Source of the DNA: Bacteroidia bacterium
GTDB lineage: Bacteria > Bacteroidota > Bacteroidia > Bacteroidales > BM523
DNA length: 34,206 nt
Assembly: GCA_016209245.1 (NCBI GenBank)
Contig: JACQWN010000071.1
Location: 1-34,206 of the forward strand
Reading direction: 5' to 3'
Shown here: piece after piece, positions 4,557-31,578 of the stretch
How the letters are laid out: every line of letters starts with the position of its first letter
Numbering within the stretch: position 1 is the stretch's first letter
The notes under the pieces: generated by a model
Told to the model about the DNA's origin: nothing
Seen by the model: only the letters and a program-made list of their open reading frames with translations
The model's database searches: none
Position numbers and translations under genes: made by a program

Positions 4557-6950
4557 ATGTCTATGAAAAAACATTTACTCTTTTCAGCATTAATGGTATT
4601 AACCATTAGCATTTGTTACGGACAGGATTTTACTGCCGTTCAAAATGGAAACTGGAGCAGCAACTCTACATGGGGCGGGCTTGGTCCTGGAAATAATGTC
4701 AATGGTCTGAAGGATGTTATTATTCCTGCAGGTATTACAGTAACTCTCGATATTGACGTTGAGGTTAACACTAACCGCAAAATACAGATTGATGGTGTTC
4801 TGGACGGACCTGACCATGGAATAACCCTCAGTGGCGGCAATCTTGAAGGGACAGGGACAATTCTCCTTGACATTCTTGATTGTGGACTTAGCAGCAATAT
4901 TTCTTTGGGACCTGGAGGCGACCTGACCGCCAATTCCCTTTCAAATCAAGCCAATATTCTTAATTTTACAGAGGGCAACCATCACATCCTTGGCGTATTG
5001 ATTCTGACGGCAGGAGTAATACGGCTGACCGATAATGCTCTCCTTTCCCTTACAGATACAACATGGCTTGAAATGTGCGGAGGTCGTATTCGTAACCAGA
5101 CCGTAAATGATATTACAACGAATCTGAATGTCCGTCTTTCCCTTAATGCCGATTCCCTTGCCAATGACCTGAGCCTAGGTGAGGCAGTGTTTGGAGATAT
5201 TCAGCTTAATTTTATTGACCCCAACCACGAAATAATATTAGGCGAAGACATTATCGTTAATGGTTCGCTAGACCTCGAAAGCGGCATTCTCGACCTGGCA
5301 GGAAACGATATTGAAATAAATGGTAACTTCACCACTAACCAAGGGCGTTTTAAAGGAAATGCCTCATCGGGCATCACTGCTAATGGTGGCGGCAGCTTCG
5401 ACGCTTTTGACTTTTTACCGTCTTTCAACTTCCTTTCCGAGCTTAATATCAACCGCGATACTTTGTTTTCGGTAACATTAGCCGGACCGCTTCAGATATT
5501 CGACACTCTTTCGCTCCTTGAAGGCGAGCTCGAGCTTCCCGGCGATACTCTTGCCATTAGCGGCTTCATTCATTCACACCAAGGAATGTTTACGGGTAAT
5601 CCTTTATCCACAATTCTTATTCAAGGATTAGATAGCGGTGGAGTGTTTAGCTTCAAACCCGGACGCGATACTATTAATAATCTTATCATTAACCGTGAAA
5701 GCTCCGGATTAAAACAAAATCTTCCAACCGGAAAAGTCGGACTGATTTCAAACTTAACTATCAATAATAATTTGCTTATTAATAGCGGAATGTTATTCGT
5801 TGTTAATACTGGTCAATATGGAAAAGCCGCCCCGAGTTCAAAAACGGTAACGGTCAAGGGTACTGCCGAGCTGAATGGAATGGTAGGAATTGCTACTACG
5901 GGACCGGTTAAAACTTTGCTCGATACAGTTAATATTATTTTGAACGGCGATTTTATCACAACGGCATTGGGAAAATTCGTTGGCTCTGAACAGTTAAATC
6001 TGCTCATTGCAAATACCGGCTTGCTTGATACATTTAGCTTTGCGGCAGGGTATGATACTTTGGGAATATTTTCCCTTGCTCGTGAAAACGGGATGCTCAC
6101 ACTCGGAAGTAATCTGGCTATTGATAGTCTGTTGACATTGGCAAACGGATATATTAATCTTAATGTTTATGATTTATTCCTCGACAGCCATACAGAAGTG
6201 GCAGGATTCTGGCAAGGCAGCTATATCATCACAAGCGATACAGGAAGTCTTATACGGAATATTCAGAGTTTAGGCGAGGAATTTGTTTTTCCTGTCGGAA
6301 CACTTGCATCTTATGCTCCCGGTGCATTGACACTTGAAAATGGTTCGGGCTTGGGAGATTTTGGTTTAAGAGTATTTGATGGCGTATTTCAGGATGGCTA
6401 TTCAGGCGCTTTACTGTCTGACTCTCTTGCAGTAGTTGATTTGACATGGGATTTCAGCACCGATGCAATCGCTCCGTTAGCAAACATAATGCTCGAATGG
6501 TTTCCTGAAGATGAAGTAAATGGATTTGACACCAGTCAGTGCTATATCAGCCATTATTCCGACAGCACCTGGGATGTTCAGGATTCACTGCCGGCAACAC
6601 CTACCGATTCCGGCTCATATTTTACAACCCGCAGCATGTCAGCACCATCAGGATCTTTTGTAATAACAAGCGAAACCCTTGAAATGCATATCAGTGAAAA
6701 TACCGTTCCTGTCAAATCTGATATCTTTATATATCCAAATCCATCAGGAAATACATTAAATATTAGCATTGCAAGCGAAGCTAAAATGGATATTATTGAT
6801 ATTACAGGTAAATTAGCTTCGACATATCAGTTAAATAACCAAACTAAAACACTTAACCTGTCAAATTTAAGCAATGGTGAGTATTTATGTAGGATTAGCT
6901 ATACCGGTTCTGGTAAAACTGATACTTTCAAATTATTAATTACAAAATAA
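4557..6950 (+). CDS. Secreted beta-helix-type adhesin-like protein with T9SS C-terminal sorting domain
   Basis: 797-aa ORF with signal peptide MKKHLLFSALMVLTISICYG and N-terminal cap motif FTAVQNGNWSSNSTWGG, shared with the giant protein at 10092. Repetitive G/N/L/T-rich body. C-terminus IFIYPNPSGNTLNISI...GEYLCRISY fits the T9SS CTD. Start could be 4557 or 4563. Confidence 0.85.
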   Translation: MSMKKHLLFSALMVLTISICYGQDFTAVQNGNWSSNSTWGGLGPGNNVNGLKDVIIPAGITVTLDIDVEVNTNRKIQIDGVLDGPDHGITLSGGNLEGTGTILLDILDCGLSSNISLGPGGDLTANSLSNQANILNFTEGNHHILGVLILTAGVIRLTDNALLSLTDTTWLEMCGGRIRNQTVNDITTNLNVRLSLNADSLANDLSLGEAVFGDIQLNFIDPNHEIILGEDIIVNGSLDLESGILDLAGNDIEINGNFTTNQGRFKGNASSGITANGGGSFDAFDFLPSFNFLSELNINRDTLFSVTLAGPLQIFDTLSLLEGELELPGDTLAISGFIHSHQGMFTGNPLSTILIQGLDSGGVFSFKPGRDTINNLIINRESSGLKQNLPTGKVGLISNLTINNNLLINSGMLFVVNTGQYGKAAPSSKTVTVKGTAELNGMVGIATTGPVKTLLDTVNIILNGDFITTALGKFVGSEQLNLLIANTGLLDTFSFAAGYDTLGIFSLARENGMLTLGSNLAIDSLLTLANGYINLNVYDLFLDSHTEVAGFWQGSYIITSDTGSLIRNIQSLGEEFVFPVGTLASYAPGALTLENGSGLGDFGLRVFDGVFQDGYSGALLSDSLAVVDLTWDFSTDAIAPLANIMLEWFPEDEVNGFDTSQCYISHYSDSTWDVQDSLPATPTDSGSYFTTRSMSAPSGSFVITSETLEMHISENTVPVKSDIFIYPNPSGNTLNISIASEAKMDIIDITGKLASTYQLNNQTKTLNLSNLSNGEYLCRISYTGSGKTDTFKLLITK

Positions 6951-6986
6951 AAATAGAGTCCCCTCTAAAAAGCCATTTTTGTTTAA

Positions 6987-7040
6987 CCGCAGAGTTATTT
7001 CGTTAAAAAAAATTTTTTTCAACGAAATAACTCTGTGGTA
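6987..7040. terminator. Hairpin terminator candidate (19-bp stem with one G:U, A8/T9 loop)
   Basis: ACCGCAGAGTTATTTCGTT (6987..7005) pairs with AACGAAATAACTCTGTGGT (7022..7040), about 37 nt after the stop at 6950. Confidence 0.6.
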
Positions 7041-7373
7041 AAATTTTGAGTTCTTGCTCTTGTCTTATAAAAAAATACGAAAAAACACTAATATAAAATA
7101 CGTATTTTCAACAATTGACAATGCTTTAATAATAGTTTATATTTGCATTATAAAAATGTTATCTCAAATAATCATTTGTCTGAAGATGAGACACTTAAAA
7201 ATATATAGCTATAGCATAAAAATATTTATTAATAAAATTTCCATATTTTTTTAACATTTTGTAACAAAAATTTTATTTATTCGTAGAAACATATAAAAGC
7301 AAATGTAATTGTCTAAGCAATAAAAAATAAAAATACGTAAAAAATATCAGATTTACTTACAAACTAATACAAT

Positions 7374-7901
7374 ATGCTAACTCTTGAAAAAACACAAACC
7401 ATTGACGACTTCAAAAAAATTGAAGAAGGAAAATATTGTCAATTAATAAACGGAGAAATAATAATGTCACCATCACCATCAACAAAACACCAGCGCATCA
7501 GTAAAAGAATTTTTAAAAAGATTGATGCTTATGTAGAAGAAAACTATTTAGGCGAAACATTTTACGCGCCAATAGATGTTTACTTTGACGAAGAAAACGC
7601 CTTTGAACCCGATATCCTCTTTGTTTCAAAAGAAAGATTAGATATAATCAAGGAAGACGGCATCTATGGCGCTCCAGACCTTGTCATTGAAATCCTCTCG
7701 CTATCCAACAGTTATCACGACACTAAAACTAAGAAGAAAATTTATGAAAAATACGGCGTGAAAGAATACTGGCTCGTTGACCCGATGGACGGCGAAGCTA
7801 TCGGTTTCAAAAATGAAAATGGAAAATTTATTGAGTTTTACAAAGGAACCGGCGAATTTACAATTAAATTACTAAGTCTGAAAATAGAATTTGTTTTTTA
7901 A
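7374..7901 (+). CDS. Uma2 family (DUF820) PD-(D/E)xK-type endonuclease
   Basis: 175 aa. Family-typical motifs QLINGEIIMSPSPSTKHQ, EPDILFV, GAPDLVIEILSLSN, KKKIYEKYGVKEYWLVDP. Confidence 0.85.
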   Translation: MLTLEKTQTIDDFKKIEEGKYCQLINGEIIMSPSPSTKHQRISKRIFKKIDAYVEENYLGETFYAPIDVYFDEENAFEPDILFVSKERLDIIKEDGIYGAPDLVIEILSLSNSYHDTKTKKKIYEKYGVKEYWLVDPMDGEAIGFKNENGKFIEFYKGTGEFTIKLLSLKIEFVF

Positions 7902-7917
7902 TTAAAATATTAAATAT

Positions 7918-8310
7918 ATGAAACCAGTACAAAAAATTACAATCGCAACAAAAGATAAAAAAAGCAGAACATTAGAAGCGCTTTTTGACAGCGGTTCATT
8001 TTACAATATTATCCGGAAGGACTCACTTCCCGAAACCCGATTTGCTAATTATTACGACGAACCTTGTGAATTTGGCACAGCAGCAATAGATAAAAAGTTT
8101 CAAATTATTGGTGAAGTTTCGCTTATAATGGAAATTGACAACCGCCGATTTGATGATATAGTCTTGATTTCTGAACAACTGTCATTAGAAATGATTATTG
8201 GTGCCAAAACAATGCAGGGATGGGATATTTCAATTGTTAATGAAAATGGACATACAAAAATTAAAGTAGGCCGCGATATGCGCGACCCTGATATAACAAC
8301 AATTGTGTAA
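7918..8310 (+). CDS. Retropepsin-like (clan AA) single-domain aspartic protease
   Basis: 130 aa. Catalytic-type motif ALFDSGSFYNII and downstream hydrophobic-hydrophobic-Gly motif EMIIGAKTMQGWDI. Paralogous to 9274..9669. Confidence 0.7.
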   Translation: MKPVQKITIATKDKKSRTLEALFDSGSFYNIIRKDSLPETRFANYYDEPCEFGTAAIDKKFQIIGEVSLIMEIDNRRFDDIVLISEQLSLEMIIGAKTMQGWDISIVNENGHTKIKVGRDMRDPDITTIV

Positions 8311-8315
8311 CAATT

Positions 8316-8702
8316 ATGGAATACACAGAACTCATACAACAATCGGAACGCTATCTGCAAAATGCGCAGGATACCCTGAAAAAAGCAGGCAGGGAAGATG
8401 GCTATTACAAAGATGAAAAATATGTGAAAAGCGCCTGCGGCACCGCCTATCTTGCCGCATTGCTGGCAACGGATGCTTTTCTGGCAAAATACGGCAAAAA
8501 AGTTCCGGAAAAAAAAGGGCGCAGACATGCCGATAATTACAGAGAACTCCTCACAAAACAAAACAAAAAAGTGCTAAATAGTTTCAATGCGGCTTATTAT
8601 GGGTTCCATATAGATGGTTATTATGGAGGAGTTTTAAAAGCAAATATCATTAAAGGATGGTTTGAAGCCCTTGAAGAACTGATTAATGAAGCTAAAAAAT
8701 GA
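8316..8702 (+). CDS. Small all-helical protein, DUF5618-like (tentative family call)
   Basis: 128 aa, 5 nt after the protease gene. The pattern Y.DEKYVKSACGTAYLAALLATDAFL...KG.R....Y...L.K.NKK.L..F..AY..FH..GYYGG resembles DUF5618 proteins as I recall them. No clean HEPN Rx4-6H motif seen. Confidence 0.55.
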   Translation: MEYTELIQQSERYLQNAQDTLKKAGREDGYYKDEKYVKSACGTAYLAALLATDAFLAKYGKKVPEKKGRRHADNYRELLTKQNKKVLNSFNAAYYGFHIDGYYGGVLKANIIKGWFEALEELINEAKK

Positions 8703-8815
8703 ATTTTATTAATAAACATATTATCTATCTCAAAATACCTGCACTGTTTGTAGTGATTTTATCAAACATTTCAGATATTAATGTTAAAAAGTTAAAAAAA
8801 ATGTTATACTGTTAA
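8699..8815 (+). pseudogene. Decayed copy A of the giant-adhesin 5' leader / signal peptide
   Basis: ATG overlaps the stop of 8316..8702 (ATGA). Translates MNFINKHIIYLKIPALFVVILSNISD... then stops. Compare the giant gene start MNFKHTYQPKFKITALFAALLLLANS. Confidence 0.5.
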
Positions 8816-8827
8816 AAACTTTTTACT

Positions 8828-9137
8828 ATGAAACAAAAGATTATTGAAAAAGTCCCTGGTTATGTAAAAGACCTGTTGCTACCGGAACTTAAAGAGCTGA
8901 AAAGCGATGTGAAAGAGGTGAGAAGTGAAATGAAAGAAGTGAGAATAGAAATGAAAGAAGTAAAAGGTTGACGGCTTACAAGCATCTTTTGATGCTAAGT
9001 TTGATGGAATGAAGACATCCTTTGACGCAAAATTTGAAGGACTGAATCATAAAGACGAAGCTATAAAAATTTATGCCGAAGCGACTAAAATGCTCATTGA
9101 AGAAATACGAGACCAACGCAGAAAAAATAACTGTTAA
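8828..9137 (+). pseudogene. Coiled-coil protein gene with an apparent +1 frameshift
   Basis: 8828..8971 encodes MKQKIIEKVPGYVKDLLLPELKELKSDVKEVRSEMKEVRIEMKEVKG then TGA. From 8970 the next frame continues in the same repeat style (DGLQASFDAKFDGMKTSFDAKFEGLNHKDEAIKIYAEATKMLIEEIRDQRRKNNC, stop 9135..9137). Deleting one T of GGTT at 8966..8969 joins them. Confidence 0.5.
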
Positions 9138-9162
9138 ACAATGACGATTTATGATTTAAAAC

Positions 9163-9258
9163 ATGAACACAATATTTAAATACATACTTAAACCCAAAAC
9201 CCCCGCCCTGTTTGCGGTGCTTTTATCACATTTTTCAGTCATTTTATTAAATTATTAA
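9163..9258 (+). pseudogene. Decayed copy B of the giant-adhesin 5' leader / signal peptide
   Basis: Translates MNTIFKYILKPKTPALFAVLLSHFSVILLNY then stops. Nt 9203..9224 (CCGCCCTGTTTGCGGTGCTTTT) matches 10132..10153 of the giant gene at 21 of 22 positions. Confidence 0.55.
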
Positions 9259-9273
9259 ATAAAATATAAAATT

Positions 9274-9669
9274 ATGGGCAGAGTCAGACAATATATTGAA
9301 GTAGGCGACAATAAACACTGGGCTTTATTTGACAGCGGAGCACGAAACACTTATGTTACAAAAGAAGTGGCGGCTAATCTTCCAAGATTTCAATTAGACA
9401 CGCCAAATCCGGTTGCGCTTGGCGGAAAAGTTCATTATGTAAATGAAGATTGCCGTTTAGTATGCAAAATAAAGGGATGTGAAATCCGTGCTAATGTACT
9501 TGTTCTTGACAGCATTGGGGAAGACGATGATGGAAAACCTGTTGAAGTACTTATTGGTGCAATCACTATGCAAAATTGGGGAATCGCCCTTTTCCCTGAA
9601 AAAGAAGACGTGGACATGAGCAATTATCCTAAAGAATTTGTTGAATTTTTAACCGTTAAAACACAATAA
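9274..9669 (+). CDS. Retropepsin-like (clan AA) single-domain aspartic protease
   Basis: 131 aa. Motifs WALFDSGARNTYV and EVLIGAITMQNWGIAL, the same motif pair as 7918..8310. Confidence 0.7.
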   Translation: MGRVRQYIEVGDNKHWALFDSGARNTYVTKEVAANLPRFQLDTPNPVALGGKVHYVNEDCRLVCKIKGCEIRANVLVLDSIGEDDDGKPVEVLIGAITMQNWGIALFPEKEDVDMSNYPKEFVEFLTVKTQ

Positions 9670-9671
9670 GC

Positions 9672-10091
9672 ATGGGAGAAATAAGAGCCAATATTTTGTT
9701 GAAAAACCAAGAGGACTTGTTCCTCTTAAGACAAAAGAAAATTAAGCAAAAAGACATTCGCAGTCTAACGATTAACGCATTGGTTGACACTGGAGCAGTT
9801 ATGACTTTGCTCCCTGAAGAAGTAATAGAAAAATTAGGGCTGTTCAATATTGACAAAAGAATAGTCGTATTGGCAGATGATACAAAACGAACTATGAATA
9901 TAGCCGGCTACTTTTCTCTTACTGTTTGCGAGCGAACTATGAGTAACGACTGCATTGTTGGTCCTCCGGGTTGCGAACCTCTGATTGGTCAGATTGTGTT
10001 GGAAACTCTGGACCTGATTTTAGATCCCTTGCACAAAACAATCTCGGTACGTCCCGAATCGCCATATCTACCAACATTAAAACTTAAATAA
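9672..10091 (+). CDS. Retropepsin-like (clan AA) aspartic protease, DTGA subtype
   Basis: 139 aa. Motifs INALVDTGAVMTLLPEEVIEKLGL and EPLIGQIVLETLDLILDP. Starts 2 nt after 9274..9669. Its TAA stop directly abuts the ATG of the giant gene (TAAATG). Confidence 0.75.
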   Translation: MGEIRANILLKNQEDLFLLRQKKIKQKDIRSLTINALVDTGAVMTLLPEEVIEKLGLFNIDKRIVVLADDTKRTMNIAGYFSLTVCERTMSNDCIVGPPGCEPLIGQIVLETLDLILDPLHKTISVRPESPYLPTLKLK

Positions 10092-13000
10092 ATGAATTTT
10101 AAACACACATATCAGCCAAAATTCAAAATAACCGCCCTGTTTGCGGCGCTTTTGTTGCTTGCAAATAGCTCTTTTGCTCTAACCTTTACTTCTATACAAA
10201 ACGGTAACTGGAATGATGGTGCTACATGGGGAAACGCCTCACCAGGAGTACAGGGAACAGATTGGCCTGCAAATACTGATGACGCTGTCATTGCTGCCGG
10301 TCATACCGTTACCCTGCCGCTAGGCATCGCATTCACTATTAACGCTCTTACTATTAACGCTACAGCCACTCTGAATGCAAACAACCTGGTATTTACCATT
10401 AATGGAAATCTGATTATTAACGGCACTTTAAATAACACTTCAGGGACTAATATAGACACCCGAATGTATGGTGCTTCTCTTGATGGCACAGGTCAAATAA
10501 CCGGAACAAATATGCGCTTTATCTTTTATGCAAATTGTGCAATACTAGCTACAGCAAACATTACTGTAACCAACATTAACCGTTTTCGGATAAGATTCGG
10601 CGCTAATGTGGTTACTAATAATGGAACTATCACCACTACCCCTAACCTCACTATTGTTAGAGATGGAGTAGGTGCAAACCCAACATGGACACAAGGCGCT
10701 AATTCTTATTTAGAAATTAATAATGTAATTAATACAGCTCAGGTGACATTTAACGCTTCTGCTGCAGGCAATACTGTAGTTTATAATGCAACCGGAAATA
10801 GAAATATCACCACCCCTTCAGCCAGCACTTATCACCACCTCACTATTTCAGGAAGTTCTACCAAAACCATGCTCGCATCTTTAATTATTAACGGCAATCT
10901 CACTATTAATGGTGGAACTCTTAACCCCGGTGCAAATGATATAAATATTACAATCAGGGGAAACTGGACCAATAGCGGAAGTTTTAATCCGACCACTGCC
11001 CGATGGCAACAGCGTGTAACCTTTGATGGCGGCAGCGACCAGTCAATTACCAATTCGTCCGGAGAATTATTTTACCGGTTAACTGTGTCAAAAGGAGGAG
11101 GAACACTCTTGTTGAATAATAATGTAAATATCAATGACGAGGGCAATACTAATGGCTTTGACCTTACCATGTCTGGCGGCAATATCAATACACAGGGTAA
11201 CACTATTACTTTGGGTAGTTCACTGGCATCCGGTGCAGGAACGCTTACCCGCACTGCAGGGCAAATTATTGGCAAAAGCGGGCGATGGGTAAATGCCACA
11301 GCGACTGATTTCACTTTCCCCGTAGGAACCGCTACTAATTATCGCCCCGCAGTGTTTAATGCCGCTGCAGGACTTACCAACGGATTCCTTATTATTGAAC
11401 ACATTAGCAGTACACCGGGCGCCTTATCGCCAAACCCGTTTACGGATGTTGTTGATCTTTATTACAATACTTATAACGATGGTTACTGGCAATTGAGCGT
11501 ACCTGGTGCCGATGCGGCTGTATGCACCGACTTCAATGTTAATTTAGACGGAAACGGTTTCACCGCTTTCCCAATAGAAAATGGTCCTATACATTTTACA
11601 CGTGTACTCAAACGCGTTTCTGGCGTCTGGCAGGCGGGCGCCTCCACTTGCATTAATGATGTTCCCGGCTGCCCTAATGGCGTAACAGGCAATGTGGTTT
11701 CGCGCAACCTGATTAGCGGAATTACAGGCGATTACGCTTTTATCAGCCGTTACAATTGTACACCGCCTTCTGCACCCACTATCAGCGGTACAGCAAGTGT
11801 TTGCACTAATCAACTTGATGTCGCATACTCCTGCACAGGCACCGCAAGCAGCACTTTTACATGGACAATTCCTACCGGTAATGGTACAATAGATGCACCA
11901 TCTTCCGGTGTTGGTGTTCAGAATATCACCGTTGACTGGGGTGCCACAGGAGGCAGTGCAACAGTACGCGTAGTGGAAAACAATGGCTGCTCCAATAGCG
12001 ACCCAGGCGACTTTGCGGTTACTATACATCCTGTTCCGACCTCTTCTATCACCGGCAGCAATAATGTTACTGAATATACCGATGGCGAGCCCTATTCGGT
12101 TACAAATACTGCCGGTTACACTTACACCTGGACCATCACAGGCGGCTCGGTTGCAAGCGGGCAGGGAACCAATGCCATTACCGTAAACTGGGGTGCATCT
12201 GGCGCCGGCAATGTGAATGTGGTTGCAACACCCACAGGCGGATGCCCTAATGATGCTCCTGTAAATTTACCGGTTACCATTGTTTCGGCTTATACTTCTA
12301 ACGGAACGGGAGGTGGCAACTGGGGAGATGCCGCATCATGGACCTGCCTCTGTGTGCCTTCCGCAACAAGCAGTATCAGAATTTTAAACGGGGATGTTAT
12401 AACCCGGACTCTTGCCACTCAAAATATTAGAAATGTAACTATAGATGTAGGAGGCATTTTGGATATAGGTGATCTCATCATGACTATTTCAGGAAATCTT
12501 GTCGCGGATGGTGAATTAAGAATGTCGGGAGCCACTGCCCGAACTCTGACTTTATCCGGTGTTGGTTCAACTTTGGGAGGTACCGGCTCTATAACGGCTA
12601 CCGCTGCTTGTGGAACTAAGAGTATAAGTATTTCAGAAGCAAAAACCATCCCTTCTTCTGCAAACCTGCTCATTACTAACGTAAGAATCTCTACCATCGG
12701 GGCAAATGTAACCGTTACTAACAACGGCACTGTGAGCATCAATTGCAATATTACTGGAAGCAGCGCAACTACATCAAAATGGGTCAATGCAGCGGGTTCG
12801 CGGCTGAATATCGGTAGCTCCTTGCTCTCTACCGGAGTGCTTGAAGCATCGGCCAGCGGCAACACCGTGAATTATAACCCAACGGCAGCACAAAATGTCA
12901 AAGTACCTGTAACCACCTACTATAACTTAGAAGTTACTTCAGGTGCGGCAACAGTTTCACTTATTGGCGCCACTACGGTGACTAACAGCTTGAACATTAT

Positions 13001-16000
13001 CACAGGACGTCTTTGGATTCAAGGAAATAGTATTACTGTAAATGACACTACTACGGTGAGTGGTACACTAGAAGATAATGATAATGCCGGAACAAATACC
13101 TTCACTTATATGGTGGTAAACCCTGGTGGCACGCTTACAACGCAAGGAGGTATCGCTGATCTTTATACGATAACCGCCAATCTGATTATGTATGGAGGCA
13201 CAATCACTTCTACCGCAGGCACAATACCTACTTACAATATAGGAGGTACATTTACAGTGCCAAGCGGCACGGCAACCATTGGAGCTGGAGAAGTTGTATT
13301 CACTATCAGTGGTGCAACAACTATTAGCGGAACGCTCAATATTTCCAGTGAATTAGGAACAAAGACATTCAATGATTTTACGATTAACACAGGAGGAACT
13401 TTCAACAGCAGCGTGGCTTCTGCTTTTGTAATAACCGGCAGTTTACAGAATGACGGCACATTCACATCGGACGCTGCCACCTATAACCTTAGCGGTGCGG
13501 GACCTCCTGTTGCAACAAAAACCATTAGCGGAACCAGCGGTTTCACTTTCGGCACAGGCATCGTTACAGTTAGCGGTACATATAATAACAATACAACGCT
13601 CACGGTTCCAAATCTTACCGTTACCGGCTCGCTTACCAATAATAGCACCTGCAATGTTACCACTACTTTTGATGGAGCAGGAACTTATACCAATGCTGCC
13701 GGCTCTACGCTGAATGTAAGCGTACCCGACCCTCCGGCCATAGCTGTTACGACTTTTGACCCGTCGGCAAATTGCAATTTGGTGAACTACAACGGCTCTG
13801 CTGCACAGACCATACGCGGTGCAACATACTGCAACCTGCAGGTAGCCACAACCGGTGGAGCAACGGCTACATTTAGCAATACTGTTCTCACTATCGTGAA
13901 CAACAATTTTACTGTTGTCAGCGGTGGAATAGCGGCTCATATAGGTGTTGTTAACTTAACGGTAAGCGGTTCTACGAGCATCACCGGCACGCTCAACTTT
14001 ACTACTGCTACCACAGGCACAAAATCTTTTAACAATGTAACTGTAAACGCAGGCGGTGTATGGAGCAATACGATTAATTCACCTGTCACCATCACCGGAA
14101 ATATTCAGCATGATGGAACAACATTTACATCGGGTACAGGGCTATATACCTTATCAGGAGCGACAAAGACCATTAGCGGTTCATCCTCTTTGAGCATCAG
14201 CGATGTTACTATTTCTGGATCCTATACAAACAATTACACTGTTGCATCCGGATGCACTTTGAGCACCGCGGGCTACTCTCTGGCCGGTGCGGGCAGTTTA
14301 ACACAAGCAACCAATGGGATCCTCTATATTGGTGGAAATGCTTCTATTACCACTCTTACAGCAACGGTCAATCCCAATACTGTTTACTATGTTCTGGCAC
14401 AGGCGGCACAAGATGTAAAGGCGACTATTTATCATCATCTGGAAATAAGCAAATCGGCAGGAACCGCTAACCTTACCGGAGCCACACAGGTCAATGGGAA
14501 CATTACCATTTCGGCAGGTACATTGAGCGCCAACGGAGCAAATAATATAACGCTTTATGGAAACTGGATAAATTCTGATATATTCACCGGCAGCACCGGA
14601 ACTGTAGTATTTACGGGAACTGCTGCACAAACCATTACCGGTGCAACCACTTTCAATAATTTCACATTAGACAAAGGAGCAGTATCCCAAACAGTAACTT
14701 TAAACAACAATACCACAATAGGCGGGATCCTGACTTTTACTCTCGGTAAAATTGTTACGGGTGGTAATTATGCTATTATTTCAGCAGGCGGAAGTGTTTC
14801 AGGGGCTTCAGCAACAACCGGCTGGGTGCAGGGATATTTACAGAAAAATGTTGCACTTGGCAGTCCTGTTACCCCCGATTTTGAAGTAGGAGGGAATTCT
14901 GTTTATGCTCCGGTAAACATGACATTTGCTAGTGTAACAGCGGCAGGCAATTTTATAGTAAAAACCACAGATGGCGACCATCCCGAGATTGCTTCGTCCA
15001 ACATCATTCCCACAGAAAGTTTGAACCGCTACTGGACCCTTATCAACTCAAGTGTTACATTCACCACATTTAACGCTACTTATAATTTCGTCCCCGGCGA
15101 CCTTGATGCCGGTGTTGACCCGACAGTTGCCGATTTCAACGGTAAAAGATTTGACAGCTTTAGCTGGAGCAGTATTAATGTAACTACAAGAAACGCTACA
15201 AACACAGTGGTTACAGGCGAACCTTTGGCCGCATACACGACTGGCCAATACCGCGAAACAGCACTTGGAATCAGCATCATTACCAGTGACATTTATACCA
15301 GAAGGACAAGCGCTGATTGCGGAGGTAACTGCTTGTGGAACGATAAAGCCACCTGGATACAATACCGCACAGGAAGTATAACTTATTCAAGCAGCAGTAC
15401 CACTGTTACCGGAACAGGTACAAAATTTACATCTGAGCTTGCTGTCAATGATGTTTTAATGTGTCAGACAACTCCAGGAACAATAATAGGAACTGTGTTT
15501 TCTATTACTGATAACAGCATATTAACTCTTTATGCTAATGCTACAGGAGACGGCAGTTGCGACTACGGCAGGCAAGCGGTTCCCAGTACAAACGACCAGA
15601 TTGTTTATATCGGCAATCCTAATGTTCTAGGTGGAGGAGTAGATGTTACCTTTAATCCGGCATCGGCAATTATCAATCAATTGGTGTTTTACAGATACAC
15701 CACACTCGATCTCATTTCAAATTCGCTTACTCATAATGCCGGAACAACACTTACCATTCAAATTTCAGCAACAGTGAATCAGCCCAATGCCGACGGTCAG
15801 ACCCATTCATGGAACATTAATAACGGGGGTAAAGTCAAAATCAATAGTAGTTTAACCATAGGCAGTAATGATGCTACTGCAACCCGTGTGGCGCGGGTGG
15901 TCAGCAACTACGGGGATTCTTTGAATATAGGCACGGGTCTGAAATTCCGTTGTGACGCTGGTTCTAACGCCATGGCAGTGCTTGATATGAGCGGTGGAAA

Positions 16001-19000
16001 CGGAGTGGTGAGCGTGGCTGGCGCAGTTACACTTGATAATGGAACAGGCACTATCAATGGCGGTGCTGCCGGCAGTATTACCGGAAATGGAACGAAAACA
16101 TTTGAAGTGGTCAGTGGCGCAACTTTCAGAATGAACGGAACTACCGTTTTCCCCACAGGCTTTGGCACTTATACATTTGGAAGCACCAGCACCACGCAAT
16201 ATTACCAAACCGATGCACAGAACATTTCGGCGCAGACTTATGGTCACCTGTATGTTGAGCCAACTACCAACGGCATTATCCATACATTTCTCGCAGTTAC
16301 CACAACTGTACAAGGAAATCTGCAGATAGGAAATGGCACAAATACCGCTGTCGTTGTGAACGGAAGCGGGGTCGGTACAACTGTTGATGTTAATGGCGAT
16401 ATTTCTATCAGAGCGAATACCACATTTAGCAATTCACTCATTCCTTCTATTTTTGCAGGAGGAAACTGGACGCAAAACGGAACTTTTACTGCAGCCACCG
16501 GCGATCTTGTAACTTTTGATGGTGCTACTAACTCTCAGGTTATCTCTGCAAGCACAGTTACGTTTCCGAATGTAACGGTATCCAAAGGAAGCGGAAACAC
16601 CTTGTCCACCAGCGGTGGGCTTACAACTGTAACCACCAACAACCTGACAGTTTCGGGCGGTACCTTTACTGCTCCGGCTACATTGAACATCAACTCTACA
16701 GCAACATCTGCATTAACGCTGAACAATGGTGGTACGTTCACTGCCGGAACTACTATCAACATCAATGGCAACTGGAATAAAAATATCGGTTCTATATTCA
16801 ACGAAGGAACAGGAACAGTAAATTTTACCAGCGCTACAACTCCTCAAACAATACAAGGAACTGCTGCTGCAGACACTTTCTATAATGTTACTGTTTCAAA
16901 ATCAGCAGCAGGAAATACAGTGAATACGGGCGGAGGCATTGTCACGGTAACCACCAATAATCTCACTATTACAACGGGAACTCTTACCGCTCCGCTTACA
17001 TTAAATATAAATGGGAATATGACACTCGCTTCGGGACAGACGCTAACTGCCGGCACAACGATTAACTCAAAAGGCAACTGGACCAACAATGGCGGTACAT
17101 TCACTCCAGGCGCCAATACGGTTGTCTTTAACGGAAGCGCAGCACAGCAAATAAACGGAACGGCAGCCACACAGACATTTTACAATTTTACAGTTACAAA
17201 AACAGGAAGCACTACGCTGGATGTTGGAGGAAGCACCACTACATTCAATGCAACCAATGTAACTCTCAACAGCAATACGTTTGCTGCGGGAACAGCAGCT
17301 ACAATAAATGTTTCAAGCGACTGGACCAATAATGGCGGAACATTTACACCCGGCACAGGAACCGTATTTTTCACCGGCACCGGAGCACAGCAAATCACCG
17401 GCACTGCCGCTTCTGAAACTTTCTATAATGTAACTTTATCCAAGACAGCAGCAACACTTTTGAATACAGGCGGAAGCATTGCTACGGTTACTGTAAATAA
17501 CCTAACCCAAACCACAGGTAATTTCACTGCACCTGCAACGCTTGACATCAATGGTAATTATTCGCTAGCAGCAAGTCAGACATTTACTGCAGGTGCAAAT
17601 ATTTACGTAGGTGGCAACTGGACATGGACCAACACAGGCATATTTACACCAGGTACTGGCACCGTAACTTTTGACGGCAGTGGAGCGCAGCAAATCAACG
17701 GTACACAGGTTACTCAAACATTCTACAATTTTACAGTTGCAAAGACAGCAGGCACTGCATTAACTGTCGGGGGAAGCACAACTACGCTCAATTCGCAGAC
17801 TTACACCAATACTTCCGGCAACTATACCGCACCGGCTACTTTCATTGTTACCGCTAATGTATTGTTAACAGCTGGCACCTTTACTGCGGGCGCAGCCACC
17901 AATGTTGGCGGCAACTGGACAAATGACGGAGGCACTTTCACCCCAGGAACCAACACTGTAACATTTAATGGAACAGTATCGCAGTTAATTGGCGGCACTG
18001 CCGCTTCGCAGACATTTTATAATGTTTCCAAAAGCGACGTCTCAGTTATGCAAACCACAGGCGCCAGTCTGGCAACACTGACCTTTAATGCATATACCCA
18101 GAGCAATGGCGACTTCAATGCTTCAACACTTACCACATTCAATATAAATAACACTATCAATCACACAGCAGGGACATTTACAGCTCCGGGAGGCACAATT
18201 GTGAAAGGTACGGGCAACTGGACCAACAGCGGAACATTTGTACACAACAGCGGAACTGTGCAGTTCAACAGCTCTCTCACACTTGGAGGAACTTCAACAT
18301 ATAGTTTTAATAATGTAACTATTTCGGGCGGAGTACTCACAGCTCCAGCAGCGAATATGAATGTGGCGGGCAACTGGACTAACAACTCATCCTTCACGCA
18401 CAACAGCGGAACAGTAACGCTTAATGGCAATAATGTTCAGCAAACAATTGGAGGAACAATATCCACTACATTCAACAATCTCACGGTAAATAATTCATAT
18501 CCGGGTTATGCTGTTACCTTTTCTGCGCCTGAAACCGTAAGCGGTATTCTCACGCTTACCGATGGGCATATAACAACCACTGCAACCAATATTTTAACGC
18601 TTGATGCTTCTGCATCAGTAACATTAGGCGGAGCGCCGCAGGACAGCAGCTTTATCAAAGGTCCAATGAATCATACTGTAAATATCGCCACGTCTGTTAC
18701 AAAAATATATCCTGTCGGAAAAGGTAATTCGTACCGCAGAATGGAGCTGACCATTGACCAGAATGTAGTAACATCAACCACTTATACAGCAGAGTTGTTT
18801 AATCAGAATGCTACGACAGGAGGTTGTTCTACTCTTCCCGGCACGATAGATAAAGTTTCGCAAACACGATATTATAATATATCACAATCGCCGGCAACAG
18901 GGCTTGATGCGGCATCAATAAGAATGTATTTCGGATGTTCGGGTAAAAATGATGGTGTAACCGACCTTGCAAATTTAGCAGTAGCAAAAACCAATTGCCC

Positions 19001-19700
19001 TGATGTCTGGACTGATTTAAGCGGCATAACAGGTGGTACAGCTGCCTGTGGCGGTTCTTACTTTGAAGGTTATATTGATGCTTCATTTACTTCGTTCAGC
19101 AGGTTTGCACTTGCTAATAAAACAGGAGGCACTAATCCACTGCCCGTCGAACTACTTTCTTTTACCGCTGAATTGGACCACGGCCATGTTCAACTTGAAT
19201 GGACAACCGCCTCGGAAAAAAACAACGACTATTTTATAGTCCAAAAAACCCTCGATGGAGCATCTTTTGAAGAAGTAGCAAGAATTCCTGGCGGAGATAA
19301 TAGCAACAATGTTTTACACTATTCGGCAACAGATAATGAACCTTACTTCGGGGTTTCATATTATCAGCTTGTTCAGGTTGATTTTAACGGAAAAACTTAT
19401 TATTCCAACCTGGTTGCTATAGATAATTCAAATCCCGATTATTCGCTTGTTATCTATCCTAATCCTGCTAATAGCCAGTTTATTTATATCAACATCAAAG
19501 GTATCAGAAATCCGGGAAAAGCCGATGTTACATTCTACGATCTTTATGGCAGAAGCGTTTTATCAGATTCATTCGCTCTTTTCAGTCCGGAAACTACCGA
19601 ATTTATCGAAATTGATTTACGTGCAGGTATTTATTATACGAAGGTTACTATCGGGGAGCATGAATTTTTGACGGTAAAGTTGGTTGTTAAAGACTTCTGA
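10092..19700 (+). CDS. Giant (3202-aa) beta-helix/Ig-repeat adhesin-like T9SS cargo protein
   Basis: Single uninterrupted ORF with signal peptide ...ITALFAALLLLANSSFA and cap motif FTSIQNGNWNDGATWGN. Two PKD/Ig-like modules (CTPPSAPTISGTASVC...; ...WTITGGSVASGQGTNAITVNWG). Long tandem repeats. Pre-CTD domain NPLPVELLSFTAELDHGHVQLEWTT. CTD LVIYPNPANSQFIYINI...GIYYTKVTIG. Confidence 0.9.
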   Translation: MNFKHTYQPKFKITALFAALLLLANSSFALTFTSIQNGNWNDGATWGNASPGVQGTDWPANTDDAVIAAGHTVTLPLGIAFTINALTINATATLNANNLVFTINGNLIINGTLNNTSGTNIDTRMYGASLDGTGQITGTNMRFIFYANCAILATANITVTNINRFRIRFGANVVTNNGTITTTPNLTIVRDGVGANPTWTQGANSYLEINNVINTAQVTFNASAAGNTVVYNATGNRNITTPSASTYHHLTISGSSTKTMLASLIINGNLTINGGTLNPGANDINITIRGNWTNSGSFNPTTARWQQRVTFDGGSDQSITNSSGELFYRLTVSKGGGTLLLNNNVNINDEGNTNGFDLTMSGGNINTQGNTITLGSSLASGAGTLTRTAGQIIGKSGRWVNATATDFTFPVGTATNYRPAVFNAAAGLTNGFLIIEHISSTPGALSPNPFTDVVDLYYNTYNDGYWQLSVPGADAAVCTDFNVNLDGNGFTAFPIENGPIHFTRVLKRVSGVWQAGASTCINDVPGCPNGVTGNVVSRNLISGITGDYAFISRYNCTPPSAPTISGTASVCTNQLDVAYSCTGTASSTFTWTIPTGNGTIDAPSSGVGVQNITVDWGATGGSATVRVVENNGCSNSDPGDFAVTIHPVPTSSITGSNNVTEYTDGEPYSVTNTAGYTYTWTITGGSVASGQGTNAITVNWGASGAGNVNVVATPTGGCPNDAPVNLPVTIVSAYTSNGTGGGNWGDAASWTCLCVPSATSSIRILNGDVITRTLATQNIRNVTIDVGGILDIGDLIMTISGNLVADGELRMSGATARTLTLSGVGSTLGGTGSITATAACGTKSISISEAKTIPSSANLLITNVRISTIGANVTVTNNGTVSINCNITGSSATTSKWVNAAGSRLNIGSSLLSTGVLEASASGNTVNYNPTAAQNVKVPVTTYYNLEVTSGAATVSLIGATTVTNSLNIITGRLWIQGNSITVNDTTTVSGTLEDNDNAGTNTFTYMVVNPGGTLTTQGGIADLYTITANLIMYGGTITSTAGTIPTYNIGGTFTVPSGTATIGAGEVVFTISGATTISGTLNISSELGTKTFNDFTINTGGTFNSSVASAFVITGSLQNDGTFTSDAATYNLSGAGPPVATKTISGTSGFTFGTGIVTVSGTYNNNTTLTVPNLTVTGSLTNNSTCNVTTTFDGAGTYTNAAGSTLNVSVPDPPAIAVTTFDPSANCNLVNYNGSAAQTIRGATYCNLQVATTGGATATFSNTVLTIVNNNFTVVSGGIAAHIGVVNLTVSGSTSITGTLNFTTATTGTKSFNNVTVNAGGVWSNTINSPVTITGNIQHDGTTFTSGTGLYTLSGATKTISGSSSLSISDVTISGSYTNNYTVASGCTLSTAGYSLAGAGSLTQATNGILYIGGNASITTLTATVNPNTVYYVLAQAAQDVKATIYHHLEISKSAGTANLTGATQVNGNITISAGTLSANGANNITLYGNWINSDIFTGSTGTVVFTGTAAQTITGATTFNNFTLDKGAVSQTVTLNNNTTIGGILTFTLGKIVTGGNYAIISAGGSVSGASATTGWVQGYLQKNVALGSPVTPDFEVGGNSVYAPVNMTFASVTAAGNFIVKTTDGDHPEIASSNIIPTESLNRYWTLINSSVTFTTFNATYNFVPGDLDAGVDPTVADFNGKRFDSFSWSSINVTTRNATNTVVTGEPLAAYTTGQYRETALGISIITSDIYTRRTSADCGGNCLWNDKATWIQYRTGSITYSSSSTTVTGTGTKFTSELAVNDVLMCQTTPGTIIGTVFSITDNSILTLYANATGDGSCDYGRQAVPSTNDQIVYIGNPNVLGGGVDVTFNPASAIINQLVFYRYTTLDLISNSLTHNAGTTLTIQISATVNQPNADGQTHSWNINNGGKVKINSSLTIGSNDATATRVARVVSNYGDSLNIGTGLKFRCDAGSNAMAVLDMSGGNGVVSVAGAVTLDNGTGTINGGAAGSITGNGTKTFEVVSGATFRMNGTTVFPTGFGTYTFGSTSTTQYYQTDAQNISAQTYGHLYVEPTTNGIIHTFLAVTTTVQGNLQIGNGTNTAVVVNGSGVGTTVDVNGDISIRANTTFSNSLIPSIFAGGNWTQNGTFTAATGDLVTFDGATNSQVISASTVTFPNVTVSKGSGNTLSTSGGLTTVTTNNLTVSGGTFTAPATLNINSTATSALTLNNGGTFTAGTTININGNWNKNIGSIFNEGTGTVNFTSATTPQTIQGTAAADTFYNVTVSKSAAGNTVNTGGGIVTVTTNNLTITTGTLTAPLTLNINGNMTLASGQTLTAGTTINSKGNWTNNGGTFTPGANTVVFNGSAAQQINGTAATQTFYNFTVTKTGSTTLDVGGSTTTFNATNVTLNSNTFAAGTAATINVSSDWTNNGGTFTPGTGTVFFTGTGAQQITGTAASETFYNVTLSKTAATLLNTGGSIATVTVNNLTQTTGNFTAPATLDINGNYSLAASQTFTAGANIYVGGNWTWTNTGIFTPGTGTVTFDGSGAQQINGTQVTQTFYNFTVAKTAGTALTVGGSTTTLNSQTYTNTSGNYTAPATFIVTANVLLTAGTFTAGAATNVGGNWTNDGGTFTPGTNTVTFNGTVSQLIGGTAASQTFYNVSKSDVSVMQTTGASLATLTFNAYTQSNGDFNASTLTTFNINNTINHTAGTFTAPGGTIVKGTGNWTNSGTFVHNSGTVQFNSSLTLGGTSTYSFNNVTISGGVLTAPAANMNVAGNWTNNSSFTHNSGTVTLNGNNVQQTIGGTISTTFNNLTVNNSYPGYAVTFSAPETVSGILTLTDGHITTTATNILTLDASASVTLGGAPQDSSFIKGPMNHTVNIATSVTKIYPVGKGNSYRRMELTIDQNVVTSTTYTAELFNQNATTGGCSTLPGTIDKVSQTRYYNISQSPATGLDAASIRMYFGCSGKNDGVTDLANLAVAKTNCPDVWTDLSGITGGTAACGGSYFEGYIDASFTSFSRFALANKTGGTNPLPVELLSFTAELDHGHVQLEWTTASEKNNDYFIVQKTLDGASFEEVARIPGGDNSNNVLHYSATDNEPYFGVSYYQLVQVDFNGKTYYSNLVAIDNSNPDYSLVIYPNPANSQFIYINIKGIRNPGKADVTFYDLYGRSVLSDSFALFSPETTEFIEIDLRAGIYYTKVTIGEHEFLTVKLVVKDF
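16460..18490 (+). repeat. About 8-9 tandem ~85-95-aa coding repeats inside the giant gene
   Basis: Recurring unit GGNWTNNGGTFTPGTGTV.F.G..AQQI.GT.A..TFYN.TV.KT....L..GGS..T......L.....FTAP.TL.I.GN. Boundaries approximate. Confidence 0.7.
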
Positions 19701-19740
19701 TCAACTCCAACCCCGCATGTGCGGGGCTATAACAGAGAGT
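19701..19740 (+). repeat. Copy of a short repeated intergenic element (CAACYCCAACCCCGCA..GGGGCTATAACAG) with a terminator-like hairpin
   Basis: Immediately after the giant-gene stop. CCCCGCA/TGCGGGG palindrome at 19711..19726. Conserved blocks recur in inverted orientation at 31521..31561. Confidence 0.6.
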
Positions 19741-20458: not shown

Positions 20459-21049
20459 TCATATAGACCCTCTACGAATAAATACTTCGCTTAAATCTAT
20501 TTCCAAATCTTTAAAAATACTAACTTTCACTTTATCTGTATAAGAATATATTTTTCCAGATTGGTATTTACCTTCCTTATCTAATTTGTAAATATGTAAT
20601 AATTCTTCCTCAGGCTGAACAATCCAATATTCTTTAACACCCGCCTCCTGATATAATAAAAATTTTTCATGAATATCTTTCTGTTTTGTAGAAGGGGATA
20701 AGACTTCAACAATTAAATCAGGTGCGCCAAGACATCCTTTATCATCAATTTTTTTGGGATCGCATACTACAACAATATCCGGTTGTACGACAGTATAAAT
20801 ATCTTTATCATCAGTTCCTTTTTTTGGCAGGCGGACATCAAAAGGAGCATAAAAAACTTCACATTTATTTTTTTTTCCTATAAAATTATATATTCTTCCG
20901 AATATAGTTCTTGAAACGCGTTGATGAAAAGTAGATGGAGCAGGGCTCATTTCATATACACGGCCATTTATCAGCTCATAGTATTTTCCATCATCCCATT
21001 TCAGATAATCAGCATACGTATAAAGCTGTGCAGAATCCATAGCTTCCAT
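20459..21049 (-). CDS. Uma2 family (DUF820) endonuclease
   Basis: 196 aa. Motifs YELINGRVYEMSPAPSTFHQ, QPDIVVVC, GAPDLIVEVLSPSTKQKDIHEKFLLYQEAGVKEYWIVQP. Confidence 0.85.
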   Translation of the reverse strand: MEAMDSAQLYTYADYLKWDDGKYYELINGRVYEMSPAPSTFHQRVSRTIFGRIYNFIGKKNKCEVFYAPFDVRLPKKGTDDKDIYTVVQPDIVVVCDPKKIDDKGCLGAPDLIVEVLSPSTKQKDIHEKFLLYQEAGVKEYWIVQPEEELLHIYKLDKEGKYQSGKIYSYTDKVKVSIFKDLEIDLSEVFIRRGSI

Positions 21050-26198: not shown

Positions 26199-26465
26199 CT
26201 ATATTACCATATTGCAAACCATTGTATAGTGAGGCGGAAGCGAATCGGAAGGGTAAACAATAAAAGTACCATCGTGACGAAATTCATATACTAACGTAGT
26301 CGGTTCATAGCTTATATTTTCACCGTGGTCAACGAACGACTCCATTTTCCATTGTGTTCTGACCAGAAAATTTTCTTTTGAAGGCAGAAATGAACAGTCT
26401 TTTTTACATGCGGATATAAGAAATAAAAAGAACAAAAATAATATATAAGAATATTTATTTGCCAT
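26199..26465 (-). CDS. Small lipoprotein, lipocalin-like
   Basis: 88 aa. Lipobox-like LFLISAC. ATG overlaps the stop of the upstream gene (TAATG). Confidence 0.6.
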   Translation of the reverse strand: MANKYSYILFLFFLFLISACKKDCSFLPSKENFLVRTQWKMESFVDHGENISYEPTTLVYEFRHDGTFIVYPSDSLPPHYTMVCNMVI

Positions 26466-27262: not shown

Positions 27263-27304
27263 TTCTTCTGAGAATATGAAATATGAAAGAAATAAGCTGA
27301 ATAG

Positions 27305-27366
27305 TTGGGGTTGAAAGTATATTTTACCCACATGTATTCATATAGAACCATAATTTTTCAATATAA
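27305..27366. repeat. Copy of a ~60-nt segment duplicated at 31552..31616
   Basis: 27 nt identical (TTGGGGTTGAAAGTATATTTTACCCAC, 27305..27331 = 31552..31578), then about 80% similarity (TTCATATAGAAYCATAATT...TTCAAT). Confidence 0.65.
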
Positions 27367-31520: not shown

Positions 31521-31578
31521 GCCCTGTTATAGCCCCAAATTATGTGCGGGGTTGGGGTTGAAAGTATATTTTACCCAC
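31521..31578 (-). repeat. Composite repeated intergenic element (matches 19701..19740 and 27305..27331)
   Basis: The reverse complement reads TCAACCCCAACCCCGCACATAATTTGGGGCTATAACAGGGC. Adjacent TTGGGGTTGAAAGTATATTTTACCCAC is identical to 27305..27331. GGGGTTGGGGTT recurs at 32165..32176. Confidence 0.6.

Follow-up and report, generated by a model that had tools for sequence, protein, structure and literature searches.

Repeated gene ends in a string of small genes upstream of a Bacteroidales adhesin gene and their possible origin by serial insertion

Adhesin leader copies in a string of small genes

The DNA analysed here (the window) is a complete contig of 34,206 nt from a Bacteroidia bacterium (JACQWN010000071.1), which encodes several type IX secretion system (T9SS) cargo genes; these point to a Bacteroidota-type organism. 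Between the gene of a 797-aa T9SS protein (4557-6950) and that of a 3202-aa adhesin-like T9SS protein (10092-19700, plus strand) lies a string of small genes, all on one strand (7374-10091), and embedded in this string are two truncated copies of the 5' end of the adhesin gene, here called leader copies A and B. The origin of these stranded gene starts is the subject of this work.

All the features of the string are on the plus strand. The first small gene, upstream of copy A, encodes a putative endonuclease of the Uma2 family (PD-(D/E)XK-like; 7374-7901), with matches to Pfam PF05685 (E 7.6e-31) and to the PADLOC candidate PDC-S03 (E 7e-41). It is followed by a retropepsin-like gene (retropepsin 1; 7918-8310), with weak matches to RVP and Peptidase_A2B, and by a gene for a HEPN-like helical protein with DUF5618 (8316-8702; Pfam PF18498, E 6.9e-31), which also gave weak matches to PaREP1 and HEPN (the latter at E 0.059); no mention of DUF5618 was found in the literature searched. 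Copy A, a stranded 5' fragment at 8693-8780, has its ATG at 8699 and forms a 38-codon dead-end open reading frame (ORF) that reaches 8815. Downstream of it lie cassette 1 (8828-9137), a coiled-coil gene with an 88-nt internal deletion, and copy B (9157-9245), with its ATG at 9163 and a 31-codon dead-end ORF to 9258. Cassette 2 consists of retropepsin-like gene 2 (9246-9669, with the coding sequence at 9274-9669), which has DNA homology to a metagenomic contig described below, and of a gene for a clan AA aspartic protease of the TIGR03698-like type (retropepsin 3; 9672-10091). The live leader (10086-10173) comprises the 5' end of the adhesin gene and its signal peptide. The inserts measure 0.35-0.85 kb and contain no integrase. 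Compared with known toxin-antitoxin or defence families, the string shows the Uma2 match to PDC-S03, the weak HEPN resemblance of DUF5618 and, for the retropepsins, weak family matches only.

The original prediction, made from the sequence alone, had described leader-like ORFs at 8699-8815 and 9163-9258 and the adhesin start at 10092, and both coordinates and sequences are as it gave them. The tight junctions that it pointed out are present as well: the TGA stop of the DUF5618 gene overlaps the ATG of copy A as ATGA, and the TAA stop of retropepsin 3 abuts the live ATG as TAAATG. The distance from stop codon to next repeat is 0 nt for cassette 2 and 25 nt for cassette 1. Each copy had further been placed at the 3' end of a small-gene module. 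Leader copies stand on both sides of only two cassettes: A and B enclose the coiled-coil gene, and B and the live copy enclose the retropepsin pair. The Uma2, retropepsin 1 and DUF5618 genes, all three upstream of A, have no leader copy on their left.

Copy A reads MNFINKHIIYLKIPALFVVILSN..., copy B MNTIFKYILKPKTPALFAVLLSH... and the live adhesin start MNFKHTYQPKFKITALFAALLLLANS..., and the three align without gaps from the ATG, a shared core beginning at +39/+40 in each. A and B each correspond in register to 80-86 nt at the live 5' end, and all three lie on one strand. Compared without gaps over 62 nt, A and live share 40 positions, B and live 41 and A and B 40; the next-best 62-nt score in the window was 33-34, with a background mean of 16.5 (sd 3.6), so the leaders align above background. 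When both strands of the whole window were searched, the best matches of each copy were the other two copies. An nhmmer profile of the three recovered those three alone (E 1e-16 to 1e-20), the following hit having E >1, and yielded no fourth, older leader copy in the window. The predicted identity of 21 out of 22 nt between 9203-9224 in B and 10132-10153 in the live gene was reproduced, and 0 shuffles reached such a match. Overall the copies are ~65% identical, and the longest perfect match between B and live spans 15 nt. We regard the repeat itself as confirmed. The ORFs of A (8699) and B (9163) are each in frame with the next cassette gene (8828 and 9274, respectively), with one stop codon and 12-15 nt in between; that both should be in frame has a chance of 1 in 9.

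An independent assembly, Logan contig L001 (SRR12113406), matches the window at 7373-10121, a stretch that includes A and B along with the live copy's initial 30 nt. Since it shows the same structure, the misassembly that the original prediction wished to see ruled out is excluded. The coiled-coil gene, which had been called frameshifted, instead carries the 88-nt deletion, as comparison with the L001 allele shows, which is intact and encodes 132 aa. The deletion lies at window position 8966-8972, opposite L001 1596-1684, between the microhomologies AAAGGT and AAAGTT, and represents either a strain polymorphism or cassette decay. Contig L001 starts 1 nt before the Uma2 ATG (7373) and stops 30 nt into the live leader (10121), just ahead of the core. 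Its ends thus coincide with the edges of the array, which could reflect assembly-graph branching and hence population heterogeneity there.

Similarity among the three leaders is mosaic. In the 5' part (+1 to +39), the closest pair is A and live (24/39), with 20/39 for B and live and 22/39 for A and B; in the 23-nt core (+40 to +62), it is B and live (21/23), with 16/23 for A and live and 18/23 for A and B; and in the tail (+63 to +83), it is A and B (14/21), with only 2/21 for A and live and 7/21 for B and live. For B and live, the heterogeneity between 5' part and core gave a Fisher p = 0.0018. The tail common to A and B and absent from the live gene, which the original prediction had noticed, is therefore real, although the consensus that it wrote, TTTATCAMACATTTYCAG, has one base more than copy A allows. 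If the copies were hybrid recombination sites formed by a crossover within a common core, the closest pair would be expected to change along the repeat, as it does. Simple nested or in-place duplication would make the youngest dead copy and the live gene the closest pair throughout, and this is not seen. Tails shared by the dead copies and missing from the live gene are as circle or att-type integration predicts.

The T9SS sorting domain (Por_Secre_tail, residues 3121-3199) is the sole Pfam match of the adhesin. From about +63, its signal peptide (LLANSSFA|LTFTS) resembles the end found in the family (LLIAVSSSIAQ|TTFTS). The n-region MNFKHTYQPKFKI exceeds that of the two closest homologues by ~8 residues and has no counterpart in them; its length and style match those of A and B. 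Upstream of the closest homologues there are no cassettes, and their n-regions are shorter and different. The adhesin signal peptide is probably chimeric. We considered these homologues as candidate empty sites and rejected them, as they are too distant (the best is 45% identical at the N-terminus), have other signal peptides and are cassette-free upstream. Exact look-ups of the adhesin and of the upstream 797-aa gene returned no record of either.

Elsewhere in the window, the 797-aa T9SS protein was found to be a paralogue of the N-terminal region of the adhesin (QDFTAVQNGNWSSNSTWGG versus LTFTSIQNGNWNDGATWGN) with an ordinary, unrelated signal peptide, so that the cassette string lies between tandem paralogues. 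A second Uma2-family nuclease gene (20459-21049, minus strand) is located ~760 nt past the adhesin stop, beside an AAA-ATPase gene, and Uma2 genes are therefore present on both sides of the adhesin. A conserved hairpin element, CCCCGCA..GGGGCTATAACAG, occurs at 19711-19735 (plus strand), just past the adhesin stop, and at 31524-31551 (minus strand), just past a DUF2809 gene; 0 shuffles gave one, and it may be a repetitive extragenic palindrome-like or terminator-like repeat of the genome.

Gene-end duplications at other loci

A 17.6-kb JGI contig (L013) encodes another member of the protein cluster (90% identity) that contains retropepsin 2. Window positions 9246-9649 correspond to L013 7251-7653 at 89% nucleotide identity, and the homology is confined to this segment, the flanks being unrelated on both sides. 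It begins about where copy B ends (~9245; this left edge is AT-rich and accurate to a few bases) and ends with the coding sequence. Since the same cassette stands between unrelated flanks in L013, it has moved between contexts. The DNA homology stops right after the codons for the motif YP(K/R)EFVEF, and the right edge of the mobile unit may be the last codons of the retropepsin 2 gene. Across the retropepsin 2 family (P0040-P0082), most proteins end exactly in ...YP(K/R)EFVEF (125 aa), while about one-quarter continue into unrelated tails of 3-40 residues.

In L013, the string lies in an hdr/mvh-type operon and comprises MNT, HicB/HicA, retropepsin, PDDEXK_2 and DUF4258/MqsA-like genes together with decayed MNT/HEPN remnants; its MNT/HEPN, HicAB and DUF4258 modules are bona fide. 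The 5' end of an HdrA-like gene occurs three times, with ATGs at 6304 and 9303 (both dead-end) and, downstream, at 10435 (live), and the MNT, HicAB, retropepsin, PDDEXK_2 and DUF4258 cassettes are placed between these copies. Pairwise, these copies are 83% identical over 103 nt, 79% over 89 nt and 87% over 75 nt. All of them start within a few nt of the ATG, their first 27 nt are identical in 3/3, and the dead ones are out of frame with the genes downstream of them. A like architecture at an unrelated cytoplasmic gene indicates that the repeat is the target gene's own end and not an att sequence borne by the cassette. The L013 MNT cassette also has a second copy with an internal deletion, in which the 5' 58 nt (6425-6482/9947-10004, 95% identity) are joined to the 3' 24 nt (6739-6762/10004-10027, 100%), and MNT/HEPN remnants lie at about 10054-10257; both point to duplication and decay within the array.

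A mirror-image case was found at a gene 3' end. Contig L016 carries a 57-nt duplicate (91% identity) of the 3' end of an FAA-hydrolase gene, located downstream of a two-gene cassette. The duplicate runs into the old C-terminus, which is stranded and still overlaps the ATG of the next gene; the live gene has a new C-terminus. Within the window itself, a 56-nt direct repeat (27304-27358/31551-31606, 87.5% identity) surrounds 4.2 kb containing TPR/SpoIIE genes and a Mur-ligase gene. One copy, on the minus strand, corresponds to the last ~10 codons and the 3' flank of the DUF2809 gene, and the other overlaps the called GTG start of a 288-aa ORF (26465-27331), the true start of which is probably a downstream ATG. 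This repeat may be another gene-end duplication around an insertion.

No such intergenic repeats were detected outside repetitive giant genes in ~100 kb of other fetched loci, which included chance-hit controls. We rejected one apparent further case, the repeat in L033, as the same phenomenon: it is a ~120-nt palindromic element resembling a miniature inverted-repeat transposable element (GGACTTTCGCA...TGCGAAAGTCC), two copies of which (7934-8081 and 8866-9011, 93% identical) flank a small-gene block with a retropepsin-3-type gene. In L013 and L016, the ratio of non-synonymous to synonymous differences between copies (pN/pS) is 0.15-0.23, meaning that the differences are mostly synonymous, which suggests that these copies diverged while they were working gene ends. 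As a test of imported versus in-place origin, however, such counts were set aside, as they comprise too few sites to decide.

As the original prediction had noted, no recombinase is visible in the window: none was detected in any scanned ORF of at least 90 aa on the 34-kb contig, nor in the gene lists of L013 or L016. For integrases, the scope of this negative result is the contig. No integron integrase (intI) was found beside the array, which a cluster of attC sites lacking integron integrases (CALIN) would not need. Folded as a consensus, the three repeats form only a 4-bp hairpin (-4.66 kcal/mol), which is not attC-like. There is no common att core at every junction, since A matches the live core at only 16/23 positions and the repeats of the L013 array are HdrA-like 5' ends. 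Neither terminal inverted repeats around the cassettes nor a transposase was found in the window, and the duplications, at 56-103 nt, vary in length, unlike fixed-length target-site duplications. The degenerate core motif CCYGCMCTGTTTGYRGYGMTTTT was also sought in GTDB representative genomes, with one hit, and in JGI metagenomes, with eight; all of these fall in unrelated coding contexts and are chance matches. The leader is thus no widespread element, and no orthologous locus was recovered in this way. Accretion at a conserved att site, to which the arrangement had been likened, is not supported: the repeat is the target gene's own end and differs per locus, and the core motif is at chance level in these collections.

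No Rfam family matched the repeats, the only matches being weak ones of miRNA models to a palindrome at 6980-7045. Terminator and promoter counts were at shuffle level, with no Bacteroidetes-type -33/-7 promoter motif in the region. On these grounds, together with the 4-bp hairpin, an RNA or terminator explanation was rejected. A scan of IMG/VR with a retropepsin profile found no relatives, so the cassettes are not evidently phage-borne.

Origin of the stranded gene starts

With moderate confidence, we interpret A and B as scars left when small cassettes without a recombinase were twice in succession inserted by recombination into the first ~60-85 nt of the adhesin gene. The incoming DNA would carry a short copy of the gene's 5' end beside its cargo, and the most economical donor would be a small circle excised from a similar array by recombination between repeat copies, comprising one repeat and the intervening genes. 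Integration would proceed by one crossover within a short identical segment, which for B and live would be the CCGCCCTGTTTGCGG core, and would yield a truncated 5' fragment of ~80 nt, then the cargo and then the regenerated full-length gene downstream. The dead copies would be hybrid left junctions (resident 5' part and incoming tail) and the live leader a hybrid right junction (incoming 5' part and resident remainder). The cargo would be selfish, toxin-antitoxin-like or defence-type small genes, the coiled-coil gene first and the retropepsin pair second, with the adhesin gene serving as a landing pad only. As each locus repeats a different sequence, we assume that the catalyst would be host homologous or short-homology recombination.

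A circle model of this kind would explain the lengths of the stranded fragments, which are similar (~80 and ~83 nt), the tail of A and B, the near-identical core of B and live and the chimeric live leader. Under the same model, the core identity to live (16/23 for A, 21/23 for B) suggests that A is the older scar; in this way we infer the order of events, as we do the circular intermediate, the crossover point and the enzyme. A circular intermediate with homologous recombination has a precedent in the model put forward for C-terminal displacement in Rhs genes (PMC2935791). A second precedent is sequential displacement at type VI secretion loci by homology-facilitated illegitimate recombination (PMC5361080). 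Serial insertion at the 5' end of the adhesin gene, each event supplying a new start and leaving the old one behind, as originally predicted, receives support from L013, L016 and the mosaic pattern, but the joints lie ~60-85 nt inside the gene and not exactly at the start codon.

Several observations weigh against this interpretation. The longest perfect match between B and live, 15 nt, is short for RecA-type recombination, and together with the ~65% identity it implies either that the events are old or that a short-homology or dedicated mechanism was at work. The origin of the first repeat at a locus is not accounted for by the model. Neither an empty site nor differing cassette content was found for this locus, the nearest adhesin relatives being just 45% identical; with no such polymorphism, the insertion history is one that we infer. 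No flanking duplication was detected at retropepsin cassettes between housekeeping genes in L017-L032, nor in L014, so the duplication is no obligatory footprint of insertion. The ORFs of A and B are open and in frame with the next gene, and some function is possible. Finally, the synonymous bias in L013 and L016 comes from 5-12 differences per pair and is suggestive at most, while the window copies have pN/pS values of 0.38-0.64 with pS near saturation.

The main rival, in our view unlikely, is homology-facilitated illegitimate recombination, which has been proposed for sequential displacement at type VI secretion system (T6SS) loci, where it would build effector-immunity arrays (PMC5361080). 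Here, linear DNA from a diverged relative, carrying a cassette, the adhesin 5' end and gene body, would form one homologous joint inside the gene and one illegitimate joint ~80 nt into the resident gene; the resident 5' fragment would be stranded, and A, B and live would be successive alleles. The mostly synonymous or conservative differences between copies in L013 and L016 agree with this, as do the tight, native-looking stop/ATG junctions before A, the live copy and L013 copy 2; with such tiny intergenic spacers, the first ~100 nt of the target gene would be most tolerant of an illegitimate joint. However, this explanation fits the mosaic less well, since it predicts neither the sharp contrast between 5' part and core for B and live nor the tail restricted to A and B. 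It also needs two or three independent illegitimate joints in one 60-105 nt zone per locus, and no donor alleles are known.

It is less probable still that nothing was imported and that the copies arose in place, as long target duplications (~55-105 nt) or local tandem duplications that diverged in situ. Duplications of similar size (56, 57, 62-86 and 63-103 nt) do bracket inserts at four places, and the 8/12 differences at third positions in L013 (a hand count) would fit one neutral and one constrained copy too. Against this stand the tail of A and B that live lacks and the shift of the closest pair along the repeat. Each further event would also need to begin at almost the same left edge, just a few nt upstream of the ATG, and ~35% divergence would have to accumulate with no indels or early stops, and the window shows no terminal inverted repeats or transposase.

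We attach comparably little credence to a bolder reading, a dedicated, sequence-independent insertion system of these uncultured Bacteroidota-like genomes, for which ~60-100 nt at either end of any host gene would serve as attachment site and be duplicated on insertion. Such integron-like arrays would have neither integrase nor attC, and the catalyst might be array-borne nucleases, Uma2 here and PDDEXK_2 (Rpn-like) in L013. Nothing that we found requires a system of this kind.

Very improbable is a site-specific recombinase encoded elsewhere, of the integron or mobilizable-island type, that would recognise the leader core and insert att-bearing cassettes. The near-identical 22-nt core common to B and live and the hybrid-site pattern at the junctions speak for it. 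Precedents exist in SXT at prfC and in e14 and phage 21 at icd, which bring a replacement for the gene end, and in accretion of integrative and conjugative elements (ICEs) and cis-mobilizable elements (CIMEs). Yet the repeat is an adhesin leader at one locus, an HdrA-like 5' end at another and a hydrolase 3' end at a third, all unrelated in sequence, and the same cassette occurs in arrays with different repeats. The 34-kb window, L013 and L016 show no recombinase, the repeats fold into nothing more attC-like than a 4-bp hairpin, and in other genomes and metagenomes the core motif gives chance hits only.

A reading to which we give hardly any probability takes A and B for genuine small genes, encoding membrane or leader peptides, or for translational-coupling devices of the operon; the adhesin would have acquired its N-terminus from their family. 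In both ORFs the ATG is retained and the frame is open over 31-38 codons of AT-rich sequence; they are hydrophobic, stop 12-15 nt short of the next ATG and are in frame with the gene that follows, and the long live n-region resembles A and B and not the adhesin family. But neither has a family match, A is listed in the Logan gene call only and B is absent from the protein collection, AT-rich cassette leaders would be expected to terminate early by chance, and the dead copies of L013, which are N-terminal fragments of a cytoplasmic flavoprotein, would be left unexplained. Chance resemblance of AT-rich signal-peptide-like sequences, or an assembly artefact, might be suspected from the short repeats and the AT-rich region (GC 0.31-0.39) but is effectively refuted by identities of 40-41/62 against a window maximum of 33-34, by the profile E values of 1e-16 to 1e-20 and by the agreement of two independent assemblies.

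On the preferred reading of serial insertion, the 31-38-codon ORFs of A and B are probably scars and should be annotated as such, not as genes. Small toxin-antitoxin and defence genes are scattered in operons of many environmental bacteria without an obvious vehicle, and these loci would show one route by which they accumulate with neither a recombinase nor loss of the host gene: a copy of the gene end would travel with the cargo and leave a datable scar each time. Dead-end copies of a gene start or end around small genes form a signature that can be mined and could gauge recombinase-free cassette accretion genome-wide.

Comparison with known systems

Elements that bring a replacement gene end include SXT, at the 5' end of prfC, and e14 and phage 21, at the 3' end of icd, and tandem accretion at att sites is found in ICE-CIME and tycheposon arrays. 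As in the locus described here, the substitute end makes the insertion harmless, direct repeats of the gene end flank the insert and accretion leaves several copies. These elements need a site-specific integrase and a fixed att core, whereas here there is no integrase, the repeats differ between loci and the cargo is shared. Integron arrays, including CALINs, are similar in their one-strand, mostly promoterless small genes rich in toxin-antitoxin types, with short repeats in between, and the newer units are probably nearest the active end in both. In contrast to integrons and CALINs, no intI was found here, the repeats do not fold as attC and they are copies of the adjacent gene's coding start. 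In laboratory insertion-duplication of the Campbell type, a circle with a 5' fragment of a gene gives a truncated 5' copy, the insert and an intact gene, the duplication being the homology carried. The outcome is the same as here, but in the present case the process would be natural and serial and would use very short, diverged homology.

The T6SS arrays of Vibrio cholerae (Kirchberger et al. 2017, PMC5361080) likewise show serial insertions at a gene border, an ordered array and gene-end remnants with no recombinase. They grow downstream and keep immunity genes under selection, whereas here growth is upstream and leaves non-functional 5' stubs. The C-terminal displacement of Rhs and CdiA (Jackson et al. 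2009, PMC2935791; Poole et al. 2011, PMC3150448) is alike in that silent pieces each carry a short fragment of the conserved gene as a recombination handle, and in that a circle is proposed to be excised between fragments and reinserted by a single crossover, the old end being shunted aside and not deleted. A and B share with Rhs and contact-dependent inhibition (CDI) loci the silent pieces in the same orientation with a fragment of the live gene, but at the 5' and not the 3' end, and the handle is only ~60-100 nt. The exchanged part is the start of a signal peptide, with neither a polymorphic toxin domain nor an immunity gene, the cargo consists of unrelated selfish small genes, and in relatives the process also appears to act at non-toxin housekeeping genes. 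The phrase 'N-terminal displacement' had no match in the literature searched. Displacement of the 3' ends of polymorphic toxin genes, the replacement ends of integrase elements and integron cassettes are thus already known, and the present case differs from all three; it would extend the displacement logic of Rhs, CDI and T6SS toxin loci to 5' ends and to ordinary genes, here those of an adhesin, an HdrA-like protein and a hydrolase.

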